A stretch of 15,866 nt of DNA from Azolla caroliniana (lineage: Eukaryota; Plantae; Polypodiophyta), in NCBI GenBank assembly GCA_043228905.1, contig JBHGNT010000774.1, positions 1 to 15,866 on the forward strand. The letters are read 5' to 3'. Position numbers and translations under genes: made by a program. Numbering within the stretch: position 1 is the first letter of the stretch; the number at the start of each line of letters is the position of its first letter. Positions 1 through 14,823 of the stretch are shown here, one piece after another. The notes below the pieces were generated by a model that searched no databases, was not told the origin of the DNA, and saw nothing but the letters and a program-made list of their open reading frames with translations.

Positions 1-25
1 ATTCAGCTCCCTCGTTGATGTGACT

Positions 26-434
26 TCAACGCTTGCCGATTCGCCGATTCCTTCGTGTTGGCGTCGACTTTCGCTGCCTTCTCGTCCTTTTGGCCTTGAA
101 TTGATCCGGTTCTTCCGAATCCGTTTGTTGAACCAAATCGGCTGTCTCCGATTCGTTCCAGCTCTTGTTCGAATCGGTTGCTCCCGATTCGTCTTCCGGT
201 TCCAGACCCTTCACCACATCGGACCATGTCCGAGTCTTGGCCTTCTTCATTTGGTCGGCTCTGTCCTTCTTGACTTTGCCGCCGCCACCGCTTGTTCCGA
301 CTTGTTTGGATGTGTCAACTTCCTTTGTCAACTCGGCTCCTTTCTTCTTCTTGTTTCTCCCTTTGTCGGTTCTTCCCTCACCAACACAATTGTCAACATA
401 TTTGCCTTTGCCCGTTCCGGTGTCTTTGCCCATT
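26..434 (-). other. In-frame C-terminal extension of A polyprotein downstream of RNase H
   Basis: ORF 26..916 reads from RNase H through LRGR into about 135 further codons without a stop. Contains TRTWSDVVKGL and KAKRTRRQRKSTPTRR, both homologous to element D. Confidence 0.75.
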
Positions 435-445
435 CTCCCCCTCAA
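435..445 (-). other. Internal PPT-like tract TTGAGGGGGAG at end of RNase H (element A)
   Basis: Identical to the PPT preceding the LTR at 14356-14366, but not followed by an LTR. Confidence 0.55.
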
Positions 446-3070
446 GTGTGGCACATCGAGATGTTGACCACCAAGCATTTCGGTGAAGTGTTGCAACTTG
501 TCCGACCCAAGCAGTTTGGTGAAGATGTCGGCAACTTGCCGATTCGTATGAACATACCGAAGTTCAACTTCACCGCTCAGGACACGCTCACGCACGAAGT
601 GGTAGTGCACTTCTATGTGCTTTTTGCGAGCATGGAATATGGGGTTCTTGCCGAGCTGCATTATGCTTATGTTGTCGTGGTAGATCAGGATCGGGGTCGG
701 CACCTCGATCCGTAGGTCTTGCAGCAGTCGCCCAAGCCAAATGGCTTCACAGGTGGCAACGGTAGCGCCCCGGTATTCAACCTCAGTGCTCGAAAGGGCC
801 ACTGTTGGCGGCTTTTCGCTGCTCCACGCAACAGCCGCTACCAAGGGAAAACATATAGTCGGAGGTGGATCGGCGATCCGATGCATCGCCAGCCCAGTCG
901 GCATCGGTATAGCCAACTAGCTCTTCGGTTATACCATGCCGGTATAACAGCCCCCGGTCCTTCGTGCCGCTCACATATCGCAAAATTCGATGTGCGCACA
1001 GAAGGTGCTCCACGGTCGGCTTTTGCATATATTGGTTGATCAGGTGATTGTCAAATATATAAGGCTTCTGACGATTTGTCGGAACCGCTTCTCATCGCAG
1101 GCTGGTCCGGAGTCAAGATGGAGCTTGTGGTTCTGGTCTAGGGGTGTGGAAATCGGTCAGCAATCTGTCATGCCGAACTTGTACAACATATTCAACACAT
1201 AGTGTCTTTGTGAGAGCAATATGCCGTTGGGGGTTTGGATCACATCGATCCCAAGGAAATATTGAAGGTCCCCCAGGTACTTCATCTCAAATGCGTCTGA
1301 CAGTTGGGACTTGACTCGGCTGATTTCATCGAGTCCGAGTCCGGTGATGACTAGATCATCAACATACAGAAAGATGCTAACCGGACCGTCCGGACCTTTC
1401 CGGATGAACAGTGAAGAGTCGGACTTGGAGGCCGCAAACCCCATCTTACGCAACCGGTGCATGATCTTCACATTCCAAGCTCAGGGGCCTTGCTTCAGGC
1501 CATAAAGGAACTTCTTTAGCCGGCATACCGCCGACTTGGTCATCTCCGACCGGAAACCGGGGGGTTGGGTCATAAAGACCTCTTCTTCAAGATCTCCTTG
1601 AAGAAATGCATTCTTTACATCCATCTGGTGAAGATGCCACCCCCTTGCTGCAGCAACCGCCAACACCACACAAACCATCGTCATCTTTGCTACCGGAGCA
1701 AAGGTCTCGTCGTAGTCGATTCCATGGGTCTGTTGCGCGTATCCCTTCGCCACTAAGCGGGCCTTGTACCAGTTAACTGAACCATCAGTATTGTACTTTA
1801 CCTTGTACACCCACTTACATTCGATCGGTTTACAATTTCGGGGACGGTCAATTAGGTCCCAAGTGTTGTTGGCATCAAGTGCCCGCATTTCTTCCTCCAT
1901 AGTGGCACACCAATTTGCGTCCTTTGCCGCTTCTACGTAGCTCTTCGGTTCACGCACTTCTGCCACCTTGGTCATGTACACATAGTGATGCGCCATGTAC
2001 TCATTATACCCGTACCACTTTACGGGGTTCTTCTAGTGGGAAGACCGGTGTAACTTATCGTTACCCAGTTTGAGGCCCTTCTTGGCCGGTTCGGTCTTCG
2101 TTGCCGAAGATCTTCCTTCTTCTTCTTTGGAGTCAGATCCGCTCCAATCCGACTCACCATTGCCGGTCTCGTGCTCCATCATGTTCCTCTTCCCCTTTTC
2201 CTTGCACGTGAACCATCTCCTCGGTTTATTGCGCGGGGGGAACACGGCAAAGTCTCCACTACTCACCGGTTCATCTTCCGACTGGTCTGTCTGACCTAGT
2301 TGCTCGTTCGGCTTGCTCAACCGAAACGATTCCGGACTCACATCTAGAGTCTCGAACCCTTCATCTTCTAACCGGACCGATTCAGGGTCACTAGCCTCAT
2401 CCTCTGGTATCAGCTCGGGGTCGGAAGTCGGAGCCGGTAAAGCATACCATGATGTCATCTCATCAAACTCAACATCCCGGCTAACTCGGACCTGCTTCGT
2501 CCGGGGGTTATAACACTTATACGCCTTTTGCTCATGTGAGTAACCGATCAGGATGCATTTTTCCAACTTTGCATCCAACTTCCTCCGCTTCTCATCCGGC
2601 ACATGCACATATGCAATGCCACCAAATATCCGAAGGTGTCTCAAATTCGGCTTGCGCCCGAAATACAACTCATGCACAGACACCTTGTCACCGATCCGAT
2701 TTTGGAAATAAACGGTTGTCCGGACCGCCTTAGCCCAGTAGAAATGGGGCATGCTCTTCTCCTCCAGCATTGCCCTTGCCGCGTCGACAATCGACCGATT
2801 CTTCCTTTCGGCCACACTATTTTGCTCCGGTGTGTACCTGTAGCGGAATTCTCTCCGAATTCCGTTTTGCTGCAGATAACTATTGAATTGGCTGGAAAAA
2901 TATTCTTTTCCACCATCCGACCGCAGGCACTTGATCTTCCTGTCCATTTCCCGTTCAACAAGGCTTTGCAAGTTCCGGAAACACTCGAAGACTTCGCTCT
3001 TCCGCTCAATGAGGTAGATTCATGTGTGCCGGTTGTAGTCGTCAATGAAGGAGACGAAGTATCGACTCCC

Positions 3071-4758: not shown

Positions 4759-4770
4759 GCTTTGATACCA
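4759..4770 (-). other. Primer binding site (tRNA-iMet) of A
   Basis: Minus strand TGGTATCAAAGC, 11/12 match to TGGTATCAGAGC, directly after the LTR-terminal CA. Confidence 0.92.
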
Positions 4771-5191
4771 TGTAAAAATGAAGGTACGGAAGCTTTAGAC
4801 AACCGGCTTGGCCGAATAGCAACATAGAGAGAGAGAGAGATTAACACACAAAAGCTACGCAGGAAACATTGAGAAAGAGCAGAACAACTTAAATCTATTA
4901 TCAATAACTCTGTAAAATTCACTTTAGATACAACGTGCTCAACAACACTATTTATATGTAAGTCCTAAGAGGAGTGACAGAAATACAATGTACTTCAATG
5001 CTCACACGAGCGTCTGATACTAACTACGAGACATTAGCTACCTAGTAGTCTAGGTTGCTACTAGGCTTCCGGCTACTGCTTGATCCGGCTAACCGGCTCC
5101 CCGGCTCACCGATCTGGCTCATCCTTCCGGATGCCGATCCGACTCAGGCTTATTCAGCCAATCTGGATCCGGTTCAGCTTGCCGCTCAACA
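4771..5191 (-). repeat. 5' LTR of A (421 bp)
   Basis: Minus strand TGTTGAG...TTTTACA, the same termini as the D-family LTRs at 13774 and 14367. Contains a TATA-like box, a CT tract and repeated AGCCGG motifs in U3. Confidence 0.92.
4949..4956 (-). promoter_or_regulatory. Putative TATA box in LTR A
   Basis: TATAAATA on the minus strand in context GGACTT..TATAAA..GTG..GAGCAC, which is shared with the D LTRs. Confidence 0.6.
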
Positions 5192-7023
5192 CTCCTTCCA
5201 AGGGTGATGAGGGTGATCTGTTAATCACGTACATCGTCGTCATCAGCGCCTCAGCCCAAAACGTCTTCGGACTCTCTCCATTATGGTCTGGTTCATCCGT
5301 TCAGCCAACCCGTTCAATTCTGGCGTCTTTGGAATGGTGAATTCGAGCCAAATTCCCATTCAACGGCAGTACTCCTAGAACTGCCCTTGATATTCGCCTC
5401 TGTTATCTGCTCGAACCGCCTTTAGCTTCCAACCGGTTTCTCTTTCTAGTCTCGTGTGGAGCTCCTTGAAGATAGACAACACCTGATCCTTCGTCTTCAA
5501 CGGTGAGACCCACAGCTTCCGGCTGTGGTCGTCTATGAACGTCACGAAGTACTGTGATCCGGCATGTGACTTTGTCTCCACTTGACACACATCAGTATGC
5601 ACCAGCTCCAGTGATGCATTCCGTCTCATCAATGGTCTTGACCGGAAGGAGGTTCAGTTTTGCTTGCCGGCCAAGCAATCAGTGCACTTCTCAAAATCTT
5701 CGACAAGTCTTCTCATCCCCTTCTCACTCATATGACACAGTCTCTTGTGCCATAGCTCACCGTCATTGTCGGATGCTACGTTCACTTCTTCCTGGCATAT
5801 CCGGGTGTGCATCAGGTACAACATGTTGATCTTCTGGGCTCGAGCCACGATCAAACTTCCTTTGCTGAATTTCATGACTCTGTTCCGGATGTTACCCATT
5901 AGCCTTCATCATATAGCCGACCGGTTGATATCAAGTTCAACCGAACCTCCGGAACGTGTTGGACATCCTTCAGCAGCAGCTTGCACCCGGTTGATGTCGT
6001 CAACCACACATCTCCTATGCCAACAATTCGGCAAGATCCTTCATTCCCCATCCGGACACGACCGTGATCTCCGGCAGTGTAGGATGAGAAGCATTTCCAG
6101 TCCAGCGTTAGGTGGAATGGTGCTCCGGAATCAACAACCCACGTTGTCTCGTCGCTGACAAGGTTTAACTCATTCTCCTTGGTGATGAGCAACAATTCTT
6201 CTTCACTTGTCGCGATTGCCGACGTTCCTTTTCGATCCGGACCTCTCCGGTTCGAACTCTTCTTCAAATGGGTGTTGTCAGTCCCTTTCTCTTTCCGGAA
6301 GTGCCTACAATTCTTCTTGAAGTGTCCTGGCTTCCCACAATAGAAGCAAGTAGGCGTCCCCCTTGACTTTGACCTTGTCACTGATTTTTCTCGGTTCTGG
6401 GGACTCCGGTACCGGTTTCTCCCTTGTTGTGTGTCGGATTCGGAAATCAGGGCTTTTGGCTCAGAGATCACTTCCTTGTCTTTCCGACGCGCCTCTTCAT
6501 CTAACAAAGCTCGGCTTCACTCTTGCTAGGGATAGTTGTTTTCCTTCCGGCCCGACGTTACCCAAAGTGACAACTAGCGTCTCCTAGCTATCTGGGAGGG
6601 AACCGAGCAATAGCAACGCAAGTACCTCATCGGCCAGAGGTACTTCCAATGAGGTGGCTTGATTTATGAGCCCCTGGAAGGCATTCATGTGCTCCACCAT
6701 ATTGGAGCCATCTTGATATCTGAGTCTCACCAGCTTTCGGAAACCCGAGACTCGATTCACGGCATTCTTGTTCTGGAACATGATGCCTACCTTCTCCTAG
6801 AGTTCATGAGCCTTTTTTTCTTCGTTGAAGTTATTGTATAGACTCATGTCGATGAAGCATCTGATGTATGATGTCGTCTCATGTGCATCACCTCCCATGT
6901 CGTGGCATCGATCTTGTCCGGTTTCTTGTCCCCGAACTGTACCGGCATGTCCCTCATCTTCGACTTCCACACTGGGTAGTTGGAGCCGGTGAGCTTGAAC
7001 ATGCTTCCGAATGACTCTTCCAT
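5192..7023 (-). pseudogene. Copia B gag-protease-integrase, decayed
   Basis: MEESFGSMFKLTGSNYPVWKSKM (ATG 7023); CFYCGKPGHFKKNC zinc knuckle; WVVDSGA protease; LWHKRLCHMS; CTDCLAGKQ; LELVHTDVC...FVTFIDD...VRADN; PELNGLAERMN. Confidence 0.94.
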
Positions 7024-7033
7024 TTTCTTGTTT

Positions 7034-7045
7034 GCTTTGATACCA
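7034..7045 (-). other. Primer binding site (tRNA-iMet) of B
   Basis: Minus strand TGGTATCAAAGC, 3 nt after the LTR-terminal CA. Confidence 0.9.
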
Positions 7046-7048
7046 ATT

Positions 7049-7582
7049 TGTGCGGAATAGCGTTCGGCCACAACCGAGACTCAAACACTTTATGAAAGAA
7101 CAAAACAAAAATGGAGGTTCGTACACTTACACAGAAGAGACGACACAGGATGTTTACGTGGAAAGCCCTAATAGGGAAAAACCACGGGAGCCCACAGACT
7201 CCAACTATCACTATACAAGAAAGGAGGTACAACAGGAGACTCAAAGGCAATGACCTCGAGCTCAGTATCTTCGTCAACCGGTGGCTTCACTTCTCTCTCT
7301 CTCTCTCTGTACTACTATGATACAACTAACAACAACAACAACACTAAAAGTGTATTACAAAGTGATTGCCCTAAGTCATATTTATACTTATATGAATTTA
7401 AGACTATTTACAAATATAGCCTTTATAAGCACACCAGAAACATATTTGCATATATGTCCATGGATCCAGTTCACACTGGATCCATCAAGATATCTTCCAG
7501 CCCGGTTCGGTTGCTGCGTTCGGTTTGGTTCCTTCCTTCGGGTCATCCGATCTGGCTCTCCGGAGGGACCGAATTCCTAACA
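7049..7582 (-). repeat. 5' LTR of B (534 bp)
   Basis: Minus strand TGTTAGG...GCACA, colinear with LTR C (both have CCCTCCGGA after 15 nt from the start). TATAAATA at 7379-7386. Includes short (CT)n and (AAC)n tracts. Confidence 0.9.
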
Positions 7583-10305
7583 CAATCAGCATGTCATCCA
7601 CGTACAACAGGAGTATGAGGAAATCTCCTCCATCGAGCTTCTTCACAAACATGCAGTGATCAGCCTACGTTTTATGGTAACCGTTGTCGGTCATGAAGGA
7701 TTCAAATTTTTAGTACCATTTCCGACGTGCTTGCTTTAGCCAATATAAACTCTTCCTCGATCAACATACCAAGTTCTCTTTACAATTCTCCACGAATCCT
7801 TCTAGTTGGTGCATGTAAATCTCCTCCTCCAAATCTCCATGAAAGAAGACAATCTTGACATCTAGTTGCTCGACTTCGAGGTTCATGTTGGTTGCTATGC
7901 TTAGATCTGTTCGAATTGACGTCATCTTTACGACCGGGGCAAATATTTCGTTGAAATCCGCACCTTTCTTCTGTTGGCAGCCCTTTACGACAATTCGAGC
8001 TTTATATCTCGGTGGATTTCCACTATATCTCGACTTCGGCTTGTATACCCACTTATTTCGGAGTGCCCTTTTCCTCTTTGGCACCTCGGTCAATTGGTAT
8101 GTGTGGTTCTCATGCAAGGAATCCATCTCCTCTTGCATGGCACTTAATCACTTTCAGTTGTGGGTATCTCTCTAAGTTAGCTTCTTCAATGTTTTTCGGC
8201 TCCCCCTAATTGGTTAGCAATGCTCGTTCTTCATCCGGAAATCTAGGGGGGTCTCCTGTCTCTCATGGGATATTATCTACCTCCATTCGGTACAATAAGT
8301 TCTTCTTCGATTTCTTTGGCCGATTCAAAATCGGTTCCTTGTTCGGCCGGTTCGCCTTGTTCTTTAGTCGGTTCTCAATTTTGCTGAGTATTAAATCGGC
8401 CGACTGGCTTAGATTCGATTTTGTTCGAATCGACTTCTACTCGATTCGGCCGAGCATCGACTCGACTCAATTCGTTAGTTGGAGACTTATTCTCAATCTC
8501 CCAATCGAGAATCATCTTCTCTTCCATGAAGACAATGTTTCCGCTCCTAATCACCTTCTTCTCGGCTAAGTCACATAGCCGATAGCCGAATTCGTCGTCG
8601 TCGTAGCCGAGAAATATACATGGCCAAGATTTTGGGTCCAGCTTCCCCCTCTGGTCCTTTGCACATACACATAGGCAAGACAGCCGAACACCCTCAAGTG
8701 TCTGTATGAAACATCTTTGCCGCTCCACACCCTTTGTGGAATATCACCGTCCAAGGGTACTGAGGGTGATCGGTTTATCACATATGATGCCATCCTCAGT
8801 GCTTCAGCCTAGAACGTCTTCGGTAACTTTACATGTGCAAGCATACTTTAGACCCTCTCCATTTCGGTCCGGTTCATTCTCTCGACCAAGCCGTTAAGCT
8901 CTGGCATCTTCGGCATGGTATATTCGAGCCGGATTCCCTACGCTCGGCAATATTCTTCGAATGGTCCATGGTAATCCCGCCATTGTCTGCTCGAACTGCC
9001 TTAAGTTTTCGGCCAGTTTCCCTCTCGGCCCTCGCTTGGAACTCTTTGAAGACGAATAGCACTTGTTCCTTCGTCTTCAGCATGGAAGCCCACAACTTCT
9101 AGCTACAATCGTCTATGAAGGTCACGAAATACTGTGAACCAACATGCGACTTTGTATCCACGTAGCATACATCCGTATGCACGAGTTCGAGTGACATTTT
9201 CTTCCTCATCGGGGGCCTCGATCGGAAGGAGGTTTTGTTTTGCGTGTCGGCCAAGCAATCGGTGCACTTCTCAAGTTGCACGTTATTTACCTCTGGAATG
9301 AGGTTGTCATCGGCAAGTTTTCACATCCCCTTCTGGCTCATGTGGCACAGCCTCTTATGCCACACCTCACCGGCTGTGTCAGTTGCCACGTTTACCTCGT
9401 TTCGGCATAATCGAGCATGCATTAAGTACAGTGTGTTGATCTTCCGAGCTCGGGCCACATTCAGGCTTCCCTTGCAGAACTCCATGACGTTGTCCCCAAT
9501 GCTACCCGTGTAGCCTTCATCGTCCAGCCGACCGGCTGATATCAAGTTCAATCGAACTTCCGGAACGTGTCATACATCTCTCAACACAAATCTACACCCA
9601 GTTGACGTTGTCAAGCACACATCTCCAATGCCGACAATTCGGCATGCTCCTTCATTTCCCATCTTTACAGATCTGAGATCTCTGGCTTTGTAAGATGAGA
9701 AGCAAATCCAATCAAGGGATAGGTGAAAGGACGCACCTGAATAGACCACCCATGTCAATTCATCACCGACACGGTTCACTTCATTCTGCTCGTTGATCAG
9801 CATCAGTTCCTCCTCACTTGTTGTGATTGCCGATGTGTTCTTGCTATCTGAAATCTTCTTCGGCTCGGCACCGTCGGCTGCCCTTTTTCCTTTCGGAAGT
9901 GTCAGCAATTCTTTTGGAAGTACCCCAGCTTCCCACAATAGAAGCACGTGGGCCTTCCCCTCGACTTCGACTGCGTCCCCAACTTATCTCAATTCTGGGA
10001 ACTTCTATTTCGGCCTCTTCCTCAATTCATGTCACTTTCCGTGACAAGGGCCTTTCAGTCGGAAATGGACTCTCTATCCTTCCAGCGAGCGTCCTCGTTT
10101 AGTAAGCTCAAATTCACCTACTCTAGGGATAGATGCTTCCCTTCCAGTCCGGCGTTGCCCAATGTGACAACGAGTGTTTCCCAACTATCTGGAAGGAATC
10201 CCAACAACAATAGTGTTAATACCTCATCGACAAGAGGTACTTCTTGAGAGGTGGTTTGATTCATCAGTCCTTGGAAGGCATTAATGTGCTCCGCAATGCT
10301 GGTAC
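7583..10305 (-). pseudogene. Copia C gag (3' part)-protease-integrase-RT, decayed
   Basis: GTSIAEHINAFQGLMNQ; WVVYSGASFH; VWHKRLCHMS; LELVHTDVC; YVINRSPSVPL; KLDPKS.PCIFLGY; MQEEMDSL...NKWVYK...YKARIVVKG...EQLDVK; YVDD. Confidence 0.93.
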
Positions 10306-11252
10306 CATAGATTGAGATATACGCATTCATGGGACCTCCCCTATGAATACCAACGAATACGTATAAGAATATTTCTTCCAATATTCGTTAACTTTTTTTT
10401 TCCCCTTTTTTTCCCTAATTTTTTTTTGAAAAAATGCATTCGACGAGTAGCGAATAGAGAAGAGCTCTGCAAGGAATAGCAATAAGCAATCAACAAGGAA
10501 CAACATCAAACATCGGCTCCTCGAAATTTAGGGTTCGACTGCGTCCTTTCCTCCTCCTGCGTAAGACATACACTCGGACAAAACAATACAAAGCAATAAG
10601 AGATATCATTCAAACTAGGGTAAAACAGATATGATCCAAGATAGAGATCACTCAAATTAGGTTAATCAGAAGGAATCCATAAAAGATACCACTCAACTTG
10701 GGTAGCAAAAGAAAGAAAGGAAAAAGAAAAAGAAACAGAAAGAAACCCATAAAATGTAAAGAGTCAATGAGGTTCAAAGCAGAAGAGAAAGAAGAATCTC
10801 ATCAAAGGTATCATTTCTCATAAATATAGGTTAAGACAAGAGGAGAGAAACAGGGGGGGGATAAGTTATAAAAAATTTCCATGATTTGTTTACCTTGAGA
10901 TCACAGGAGGGGATGCCTTGGCAGGGGTGGGCAGCAGCAACAATCCACAAGTTGTTGTCAAGGATGCCATGGGCAAAAGGCCAAAAGCAAAAGAAGCAGC
11001 AATGGCTATGGAAGCTTGAGGCACTCAATGGGTTCCACTAGTGGTTTTGATTTTTGAAGACCTTCCATTTTTCTATTAATTGGTGATTTTTCCTTCTTCT
11101 TTTTTTAAGTGAATTGAATCATTTTTATTATGTAAATTTATTTTCCATAAACGAATGGTTTTATAATATTCTTGGAGCAATTTTATATTCTCGAATACTA
11201 CGAATATTGCGGATGTCGAATACCACGCATATCACGCATGGGTCAATCTATG
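10306..11252. mobile_element. Non-autonomous TIR DNA transposon (947 bp), probably hAT-type
   Basis: Perfect terminal inverted repeats CATAGATTGA/TCAATCTATG. Flanks GCTGGTAC (10298-10305) and GTTGGTAC (11253-11260) form an 8-bp TSD with one C/T mismatch. Subterminal CGAATA-type repeats at both ends. Removing it restores gag YQDGTSIAEH. Confidence 0.88.
10490..10970 (-). other. Putative captured two-exon gene fragment (47-aa spliced ORF, transit-peptide-like start)
   Basis: ATG at 10970 in CCCATGGCA context; donor AAG|GTAAAC at 10893; T-rich 337-nt intron; acceptor TTACGCAG|G at 10557; stop ends at 10490. Prediction by eye only. Confidence 0.4.
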
Positions 11253-11600
11253 GTTGGTACCATCTTGATACCGGAGTCTCACGATTTTTCTGAAAACTAA
11301 GACTCTGTTCACAACGTTCTTGTTCTCGAACATTATGCCAATCTTCTTCCAAACGACGTCAGAACTCGTCTCTTCATCAAAGTTTTTGTATAGACTCATG
11401 TCTACAGAACACCTTATATATGCATCCGACTTCGGATGCATGACTTCCCAAGTTGATGCATCGATCTTGTCTGGCTTTGTCTTTCTGTATTGCACCAGCA
11501 ACCACAAGTCTTTGCACACGAGCATATTCCTCATCTTTGACTTCCACATAGAATAGTTGGATCCGGTTAACTTGAACATTCCACTGAAATGTTCGTCCAT
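11253..11600 (-). pseudogene. Copia C gag N-terminal part
   Basis: MDEHFSGMFKLTGSNYSMWKSKMRNMLVCKDLW...VRLRYQDGT, homologous to B gag and cut by the TIR element. Confidence 0.92.
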
Positions 11601-11601
11601 C

Positions 11602-11613
11602 GCTCTGATACTA
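11602..11613 (-). other. Primer binding site (tRNA-iMet) of C
   Basis: Minus strand TAGTATCAGAGC (11/12 match), 3 nt after the LTR-terminal CA. Confidence 0.88.
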
Positions 11614-13043: not shown

Positions 13044-13054
13044 TTGAGGGGGAG
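13044..13054 (+). other. Internal PPT-like tract TTGAGGGGGAG at end of RNase H (element D)
   Basis: Identical to the tract in A (435-445) and to the PPT at 14356-14366. Confidence 0.55.
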
Positions 13055-13762
13055 AAGTAGTGAAAGCAAAAGCGAAAGGGAGAGAGATGAAGTCGGAAAA
13101 GCCGAATCGAATGTAGAATTCGATTTCGAGACGGCTAAAGAAGTCGGAATGTCTGGATCGACTGAAGAAATTCGAGGACGGATCGGACGAGAGGACAAGT
13201 GGAAGGAGAACAACTAAAGGAAGACTATCTAGTTGTAGGGGGAGTGGTCGAAAAAGACAGCCAAAGATGGAGCCAATTGAACAAGGGGGAGGTAGAGCTG
13301 AGAAGGGCAAGGCAAGTGGCAGAGCCAACCTAAAGATGAAGGTTAGGACCAGGACATAGTCAGATATGGTCAAGGGCTTGAAGGAGGACGAGTTGGAGAC
13401 AGCCAATTCGGTTGAGAGCAGTAACGGATCGTAGATAGCTGATCCAGTAGAGAGAAGTGAGCCAGACGAGACGGATCATGTGAAGGCTAGACGGACAAGG
13501 AGGCAGCTGAAGTCAACACCGATACGGAGGAGCCAACAAGTCGAGGGGCGCCAATGTCGTAAAGCAAGGGAGCTGACAAGGGCCTCGAAAGCAGTCAACT
13601 CAGTCATAGGGGTCAAGGAACGTGGAACCAGACGTGTCGAGGAGCATTGGACCATAGGGGTCGTGGGATGCAGGACCAAACCGGACAAGGAGCACGAGCA
13701 AGGCATGAAGACGCTAGGAGAAGTGAAGGTTGTTGACACAATGAACCGACCTCAAGTTGAGC

Positions 13763-13773
13763 TTGACGAGGAG
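13763..13773 (+). other. Degenerate polypurine tract of D
   Basis: TTGACGAGGAG immediately before the LTR TG, with 2 mismatches to TTGAGGGGGAG. Confidence 0.75.
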
Positions 13774-14215
13774 TGTTGAGTGGACAAGCTCAACATGGGC
13801 CGATCGGTTGAATAAGTCGAAAGTCGGATCGTGCATAGGTCAATCTACTAGGCCCGAATCGGCTAAATAAGCCATAAGCCGAATCAATTAGTCAAGTCAG
13901 ATGGAATCCGACAAGCTGTTAGGGAGCCTAGATGCCTATTTGGCCTATTTTAGGGTAATTAGTGTCAGTCTGAGTTAATGAGCATTAAAGTACGTGTCAA
14001 TACTTTTGTCAGTCCTTTTGAAGGACTTGTATAAAAAGTGCTCTCTAAGCACATTCTATGTACTGAGTATTATTTTTTGCAATAGAGTTTTTGTGTCTGC
14101 TCACTTAGTGTCTCTCTCTCTACTACTCTATGTTTACCTAATTAGCTATTTTTTGTTGTCTAGCCGAGCCGGTTGTGTTCGCACATAACGCTTCCACACA
14201 TGTAATCCTTTTACA
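13774..14215 (+). repeat. LTR D1 (442 bp): 3' LTR of D and 5' LTR of the mini-element
   Basis: TGTTGAG...TTTTACA, preceded by a PPT and followed by a PBS. Aligns end to end with 14367-14823. TATAAAAA at 14030-14037. Confidence 0.95.
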
Positions 14216-14227
14216 TAGTATCAGAGC
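14216..14227 (+). other. Primer binding site (tRNA-iMet) of mini-element
   Basis: TAGTATCAGAGC directly after the LTR CA, followed by GCGAGGGTT as in A's leader. Confidence 0.9.
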
Positions 14228-14355
14228 GCGAGGGTTAGAAGAATCCTCTGTAGTCGACACGTGAACAAGCACAGAGACAAGCTTTTGTCTTCCGGAGAAG
14301 AAAAGACAGGAACATGGATCGATGCCGAAGTTGACGAACCGACCTCAAGTTGAGC

Positions 14356-14366
14356 TTGAGGGGGAG
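14356..14366 (+). other. Polypurine tract of mini-element
   Basis: TTGAGGGGGAG immediately before the LTR TG. Confidence 0.9.
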
Positions 14367-14823
14367 TGTTGAGTTGTCAAGCTCAACATGGGCCGATTGG
14401 CTGAATAAGCCGAAAGCTAGATTGGACATAGGTCGATGGGCTAGGTCCAAATTGGCTTAATAAGTCGTAAGCCGAATCAGCTAGTTGAGACAGATGGAAT
14501 CCGACAGGTTGTTAGGGAGCCTAGATGCCTATTTTAGTAAATAGGCCTATTATAGGCTAATTAATGTCAGGCTTAGTTAATGAGCATTAAACTACGTGCC
14601 AATACTTTTGTCAGTCCTGACTCCTTTTGAAGGACTTGTATAAAAAGTGCTCTCTGAGCACATTCTATGTACTGAGTATTATTTTTTGCAATAGAGTTTT
14701 TCTGTCTGCTCACTTAGTGTCTCTCTCTCTACTACTCTGTGTTTACCTAACTTTTTGTTTCTGTTGTCCAGCCGAACCAGCTGTGTTCGCACATAACGCT
14801 TTTATAAACGTAATCCTTTTACA
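14367..14823 (+). repeat. LTR D2 (457 bp)
   Basis: TGTTGAG...TTTTACA. About 50-55 substitutions plus 9-, 7- and 1-bp indels versus LTR D1 (hand count). TATAAAAA at 14639-14646. Confidence 0.95.

Follow-up and report, generated by a model that had tools for sequence, protein, structure and literature searches.

The window analysed here, the whole stretch of 15,866 nt from Azolla caroliniana, carries two members, A and D, of one Ty1/copia family. Element A, on the minus strand, is a dead copy of a plant Ty1/copia element. Starting with the 5' LTR (4771..5191, TGTT...TACA) and a primer-binding site (PBS) with one mismatch (4759..4770), which we take to be of the tRNA-Met 3'-end type, it runs through gag, protease, integrase, reverse transcriptase (RT) and RNase H (434..838), as assigned with Pfam, and is interrupted by stops and frameshifts. 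The Pfam matches (DUF4219, Retrotran_gag_2/3, Pol_BBD, rve, SH3_retrovirus and RVT_2, the copia-type RT) follow the gag-PR-IN-RT-RH order of Ty1/copia elements, and the ends are likewise of this type, with TG...CA LTR termini, a PBS and a polypurine tract (PPT), the 5' LTR and PBS being found in A and the PPT/LTR junction in D at 13774. The relative P0004 has an ESM Atlas structure match to Ty1/Copia RNase HI clusters, and the RNase H clusters are from Streptophyta, which together with the plant and leaf origin of the metagenomes suggests a land plant as the host.

RNase H is normally the last part of a Copia Pol, and ordinary Copia elements replicate with nothing behind it. In A, the minus-strand frame from 916 to 26 passes the RNase H end (...HLDVPHLRGR) and continues for 135 more codons to a TGA at 28-26, which agrees with the figure of about 135 codons in the preliminary description. 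This Pol C-terminal tail (26..433, minus strand) was said to remain similar to D beyond the TGA, and indeed its homology extends to the window edge: L074 aligns with A as far as window base 2, and since P0001 and P0002 read through the same position, the stop is private to A. The LRGR codons (434..445) also form an internal PPT-like octamer, AGGGGGAG, which may mark the ancestral end of pol. In the family, the order after RNase H and LRGR is a variable acidic linker, block 1, an acidic core, a basic Arg-rich third and the terminal PQVELEGEC. Block 1 of A (203..235, minus strand), TRTWSDVVKGL, holds the sole predicted helix of the tail and is its most conserved motif, with W in 110/115, V in 115/133 and K in 123/140 proteins, a protein-based count in which stops at the W codon are invisible. 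It is separated from block 2 by an acidic, Ser/Thr-rich core under moderate purifying selection (98..202). Block 2 (50..97) is the basic KAKRTRRQRKSTPTRR, which by its composition would resemble a nuclear localization signal (NLS) or an RNA-binding segment.

Element D lies on the plus strand. Behind its RNase H end, where LRGR and the internal PPT-like octamer again coincide (13044..13055), it has a decayed full tail (13056..13779) with one net frameshift ahead of block 1 and two TAG stops. The homologous stretch of about 720 nt and the end of the block-bearing frame at the LTR (PQVELDEEC*, TGA 13777-13779, stop within the LTR) were as originally reported, but this frame is not that of D's RNase H, the distance from LRGR to the motif being 298 nt and thus out of frame. 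An acidic EFDFE (13116..13130) is the D form of an E-E-F-D-F-G motif found in many subfamilies. Block 1 (13348..13380) differs from that of A (235-203) by six synonymous codon differences and two G>A changes, and block 2 (13483..13530) from that of A (97-50) by eight synonymous codon differences, both exactly as first noticed. The terminal PPT sits within a 13-nt inverted repeat spanning the PPT/LTR junction (13753..13797), and the 3' LTR follows (13774..14215); the family LTRs are about 420-450 bp. The stop codon of the tail corresponds to LTR bases 4-6, where 30/35 copies have TGA. On the 3' side of this LTR, the plus strand of window 14216-14823 has a PBS, a leader of ~130 nt, the last tail codons with the PPT and a second LTR, the leader joining near the gag start directly to the last tail codons. 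This is a TRIM-like, internally deleted tandem unit, which has its LTR in common with D.

Further copies were collected from metagenome contigs. Protein searches gave 2, 15 and 1 matches, and a profile scan at E<=0.001 was used for the best 150 of 302 representatives; the resulting protein set has 159 matches, mostly fragments of decayed copies. A degenerate block-1 DNA pattern hit 74 metagenome loci and two loci in bacterial genomes, and with A and D 72/78 sequences were scored as family members. The two bacterial matches were scored as non-members. After 6 non-members and 9 near-duplicates were left out, 62-63 copies entered the later tests. The family is very abundant, as thousands of contigs per run span the tail in four organisms. 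With A's own peptides as the query, no locus was confirmed in the metagenome contigs, and in the viral contigs no related locus was confirmed and the block-1 pattern had 0 matches. A full-length Pol with the tail was not found in the protein set, where a profile search for longer proteins, a weak one with 7991 candidates scored, gave only P0016. In P0016, a bacterial trigger-factor-like protein is joined to a piece of the tail that has an identical counterpart in P0023, and it is most likely a chimeric metagenome contig.

The family has one frame that leads from RNase H through a tail of 115-243 aa (seven proteins measured) to PQVELEGEC* and a stop inside the 3' LTR. P0001, P0002, P0004, P0022 and P0114 cover the whole of it from the RNase H end, and a LEGxC C-terminus is found in 20/159 match proteins. 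No stop behind RNase H is shared by the whole family, in line with the original proposal: only 3/37 copies stop within five codons of LRGR, and of the 19 match proteins that include the RNase H end, 15 extend as far as block 1 within one ORF. An open frame alone is little proof, because the coding strand has just 12-15% T and stops are rare. The frame is kept from LRGR to block 1 in 22/41 copies, at 33 different lengths (114-298 nt), and between block 1 and the stop in the LTR in 21/35; with stricter criteria, 18/37 copies keep the linker in frame and 24/37 RNase H itself. Both anchors are present in 22 copies, and both halves are in frame in just 7 of them, which indicates that the copies are old. 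When the out-of-frame copies are compared with in-frame relatives, they mostly have single-base losses at scattered places. In the linker of 37 copies, the out-of-frame offsets are skewed (15 vs 4, and 6 vs 7 in RNase H), with no single shared break site.

In the pol frame of the tail, the columns with at least 20% stops number 0/39 and 0/57, and shared stops are present in the other two sense frames; one frame of the LTR control is likewise free of shared stops. Among tail indels of at least 4 nt, counted on a minimum spanning tree, multiples of three make up 38/64 (p=2e-5) and 25/48 (p=0.006), pooled 63/112, compared with 14/41 in the LTR and 5/11 in RNase H, and a second gap setting was concordant.

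The comparison of A and D over 74 comparable tail codons gave a dN/dS of 0.23 (pS 0.62 vs pN 0.24; Fisher p=1.6e-6). The corresponding ratio is 0.13 in RNase H, and it is 1.16 and 0.79 when the tail is read in its two shifted sense frames. The ratio is well below 1 in the two blocks, as had been expected. The conservation was first described as two islands; instead, about 55 residues form an unbroken core, and even outside the blocks dN/dS is 0.42. Block 2 as a unit held in part, since KAK..R/K.Q is family-wide and RKSTPTRR is subfamily-specific. Across the family, the 39-codon core without the search motif has a Nei-Gojobori ratio of 0.40, RNase H, which is partly out of frame there, 0.37, and the LTR 0.80-0.93. 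A kappa-corrected GY94 codon model on 57 copies, again with the search motif left out, gave an omega of 0.64 for the core (LR 26.5 against omega=1, p~3e-7), whereas the controls were at 1.04 and 1.21 in the shifted frames, 0.40 in RNase H and 0.92-1.19 in the LTR; these omegas include neutral decay after insertion. Core diversity follows the order of codon positions pos3>pos1>pos2 (p=0.004; p=0.011 without CpG/CNG columns), and the LTR is flat.

Variants in the reads of four runs point in the same direction. The reads were placed by DNA likeness and not by peptide, and 22 of the 40 listed common variants (of 42 in all) are synonymous versus an expected 29% (p=7e-4); by part, these are 6/6 in block 1, 5/7 in block 2 and 11/27 between the blocks (p=0.15). 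The four-fold transversion test was negative for the core (0.084 at 13 sites, not above the 0.108 of second positions), while RNase H is above. In the basic C-terminal third (57 codons), no amino-acid-level selection was detected, with an omega of 1.01 and no codon periodicity. Selection on the tail is thus uneven: it is strongest in the TWSDVVKGL helix, moderate in the next ~40 residues and undetectable in the basic third. Coding and purifying selection on the tail core are well supported, and we regard it as very probable that the tail is translated and partly under selection. The tail is therefore a real feature of pol, and it is broader than first described.

Some of the conservation is at the DNA level. 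The LRGR-coding octamer AGGGGGAG is exact in 21/40 copies, with a third-position heterozygosity of 0.05-0.14 versus a median of 0.47 in RNase H, a conservation possibly inflated by anchoring. A terminal copy of the octamer, which adjoins the TGTT of the LTR with no gap, is present in 21/35, and a further internal one in 4/7 tails examined. PQVELEGEC was considered as a protein motif and rejected, as its third positions are as fixed as the others, all three codon positions being equally fixed; it is conserved because its sequence forms the terminal PPT and the left arm of the inverted repeat, an arm found in 28/35 copies. The PPT copies at both tail ends suggest that the tail may have arisen by insertion between two polypurine-tract copies, behind the ancestral end of pol.

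The tail had been proposed to be a fused and mostly disordered domain with short motifs. The fusion was observed, and charge-hydropathy values place 7/7 tails on the disordered side and RNase H on the ordered side; the limits of this agreement are the basic third, without amino-acid selection, and the terminal peptide, conserved as a DNA signal. The highest 19-residue hydropathy in 7 tails is <=0.57, so that none has a transmembrane-like segment. An AF2 model of RNase H plus tail from 116 sequences, a weak one (pTM 0.26), has one tail helix, W-S-D-V-V-R (181-186 of P0004), with the top pLDDT of the tail (about 69), and it found nothing with Foldseek at E<=0.001; in single-sequence AF2, RNase H itself reaches a pLDDT of 42. 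On these models, the tail is predicted to be mostly disordered with one short helix. In-frame fusion, selection on short segments and free in-frame length change fit a disordered region with short linear motifs, since such regions typically give this pattern.

The E-E-F-D-F-G motif of the linker could be anchored in 39/63 copies, of which 3 are clearly spurious (F 35, D 29, F 32, G 27). A's subfamily lacks it, and a test of the motif by codon position was not significant (p=0.13). Other candidates in the tail were rejected. KxTQT is the binding motif for LC8, and Q stands at that column in just 15/110; the RACK1 motif FPxL occurs in 1/159 proteins. An origin of the tail from an old LTR or from another part of the element was also rejected, as a blastn comparison of 7 tails with the window returned only homologous tails and matches of <=29 nt. 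L063 has two in-frame tandem copies of block 1 (L063:794-882), spaced by 60 nt. A CxxCxxHH segment was observed in 4/159 match proteins, ahead of block 1 in P0002, P0003 and P0005 and after the core in P0008; its differing position suggests that modules have been shuffled within the tail.

The tail was expected to lie outside the described families, and this view was upheld, as no significant match was obtained in Pfam, NCBIfam, PDB sequences or the ESM Atlas, one of these searches having a best E of 0.046 with one member each; in Rfam the window had no match. The family resembles classic plant Ty1/copia (Pseudoviridae-type) elements in its gag-PR-IN-RT-RH order, its PBS, taken as tRNA-Met-type, and a PPT adjoining the LTR. 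According to the accessible text of PMC2829016, the linker of classic elements averages 78 bp with one PPT, whereas most copies of the present family have about 500-720 nt in the pol frame between a retained internal PPT-like octamer and its terminal counterpart. The same text describes an inverted repeat around the PPT/LTR junction in Sireviruses and some classic elements, a feature in common with this family.

Additional coding between RNase H and the 3' LTR and more than one AGGGGGAG octamer are also likenesses to SIRE/Sirevirus elements. The part of PMC3414828 that could be consulted describes the Sirevirus env-like ORF as expressed via stop suppression or an internal promoter and as having transmembrane and coiled-coil segments, and in PMC2829016, as far as its text was available, 3-5 octamer copies are given for the Sirevirus linker, with the terminal AGGGGGAG exactly 10 bp from the 3' LTR. 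Sireviruses are further characterised by an extended Gag and LTRs of 1.28 kb on average with repeated-motif boxes, well above the LTR length of the present family. The tail is not the Sirevirus env-like ORF (eORF-3'F of REXdb), because it is in frame with pol without a stop, has no hydrophobic segment, and its octamer abuts the LTR and is not 10 bp from it. It is a variant form of Copia Pol, set apart from the Sirevirus env-like ORF.

No description of such a tail was found in the literature searched, which consisted chiefly of the main texts of open-access papers. In the REXdb survey, by the available portion of PMC6317226, eORFs of >=250 codons were kept and those fused to pol were removed in some elements; because of this threshold and this removal, the survey would miss the tail. 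The word "fern" is absent from the main text of that paper, and the accessible part of PMC9916801 lists fern copia lineages and has nothing on tails.

Regarding function, we propose that the predicted-disordered tail would be a docking platform for host proteins, to which its short motifs would bind. It would be made as the Pol C-terminus on RT-RNase H, or might be freed by the protease of the element. By motif likeness, we see an even chance that the tail docks host proteins, most likely those of the translation and RNA-granule machinery. The TWSDVVK helix would bind a RACK1-type partner, the acidic FDFG an NTF2-like (G3BP) partner, and the basic third would be a sequence-nonspecific RNA binder. 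The combined effect would be that the RNA of the element is kept on ribosomes and away from silencing or storage granules.

The RACK1-interacting helix (RIH) of ZAK has been reported to be a 7-residue helix with Y611/V615/R616 (PMC12823453, accessible sections), and a pattern S-aromatic-A-x-hydrophobic, shared with LARP4, RNF10 and USP10, is given in the available part of a preprint (bioRxiv 10.64898/2026.08.26.747346). An RIH occupies a site on RACK1 between blades 5 and 6. As far as these sources go, block 1 is like the RIH of ZAK-alpha, LARP4, RNF10 and USP10 in being a predicted short helix in a predicted disordered region, with an aromatic residue, a +4 Val and a +5 basic residue. It is unlike the RIH in that the strict pattern occurs in 0/159 proteins, with T for S and mostly S for A. 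T/S-W-A-x-hydrophobic was found in 8/159, and a relaxed pattern, written after the motif was seen, in 56/159 versus 5/20000 shuffled tails. As for the second motif, the accessible text of PMC11044841 reports that FxFG peptides, also known as a nucleoporin motif, occupy the G3BP1 NTF2L pocket, and FGDF-type motifs of plant viruses on plant G3BP are reported in the part of PMC8222905 that was seen. The acidic F-D-F-G in a disordered, viral-type tail is like the FGDF/FxFG ligands of the G3BP NTF2-like domain in alphavirus nsP3, USP10, nucleoporins and some plant virus proteins, within what these sources cover. It is unlike them in that FGDF proper occurs in 0/159 proteins, besides the absence of the motif from A's subfamily and of significant selection on it. 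In yeast, ASC1/RACK1 is among the Ty1 restriction genes (PMC4673737, in the portion accessible).

A nuclear role of the translated tail, in bringing the RT/integrase/cDNA complex into the nucleus or to its integration sites, is possible but rather unlikely in our estimate. The basic block would be the NLS, FxFG the ligand of an import factor and the W helix the ligand of a chromatin protein. Integrase C-terminal tails steer targeting in other retroelements (the Ty1 NLS, Ty5, MLV). The coding evidence serves this explanation equally well, as do selection on the K/R-rich block 2 and the nucleoporin character of FxFG, as far as our source describes it; however, in the Copia gene order the tail is on RNase H and not on integrase.

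A more specific form of the host-docking proposal, also drawn from motif likeness and judged unlikely by us, is that the tail mimics ribosome-quality-control factors such as USP10. Here, a RACK1-interacting helix and an FxFG-type G3BP ligand would together tether RT-RNase H to the 40S subunit and block stress-granule capture or stall-triggered silencing.

We are slightly more doubtful that the tail acts on the element's own parts, as a charged RNA/DNA chaperone in reverse transcription or particle assembly with the W helix bound to RT, integrase or Gag. It would explain why a C-terminal third with drifting sequence (omega 1.0) retains its frame and a net positive charge, as under selection on composition only, and the CxxCxxHH segment of four proteins is in keeping with it. 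Nevertheless, the AF2 model of RNase H plus tail, weak as it is, has no folded tail, and ordinary Copia elements do without one.

Finally, it is improbable that the tail is a purine-rich 3' untranslated linker, free of stops by chance and conserved as RNA or DNA (extra PPT, packaging signals) with a synonymous excess from transition bias: the scarcity of T, the negative four-fold transversion test, the PPT-like ends conserved as DNA and the 3-nt indels that slippage in GA-rich sequence could yield speak for it, but the pol frame is the only one for which the kappa-corrected codon model rejects omega=1, codon periodicity remains without CpG/CNG columns, the block 1 variants are all synonymous in peptide-independent data, and the other two frames have shared stops.

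If docking on host proteins is the function and the partner is RACK1 or G3BP, the family would be a case of an LTR retrotransposon countering translation-linked host control, and true mimicry of their ligands would make the tail a retrotransposon-encoded counter-defence at translation. A separate Sirevirus env-like ORF is the known form of extra 3' coding in the superfamily, and a fused and selected tail with motifs is another way of gaining an accessory function. Because the function is narrowed to a 9-residue helix with a near-invariant Trp, tests of host partners are cheap.

Other elements are nested with A and D in the window. Two decayed copies on the minus strand (5194-7110 and 7560-11610), about 75% identical to each other, belong to an unrelated copia family, which is presumably Tork-like by its gag motifs. 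Inside the gag of this second family lies a 951-bp AT-rich insert (10304-11254) with perfect 12-bp terminal inverted repeats. By eye, it has a host-gene-like first exon on the minus strand at about 10990-10890, and the insert is possibly a non-autonomous DNA transposon with gene fragments.
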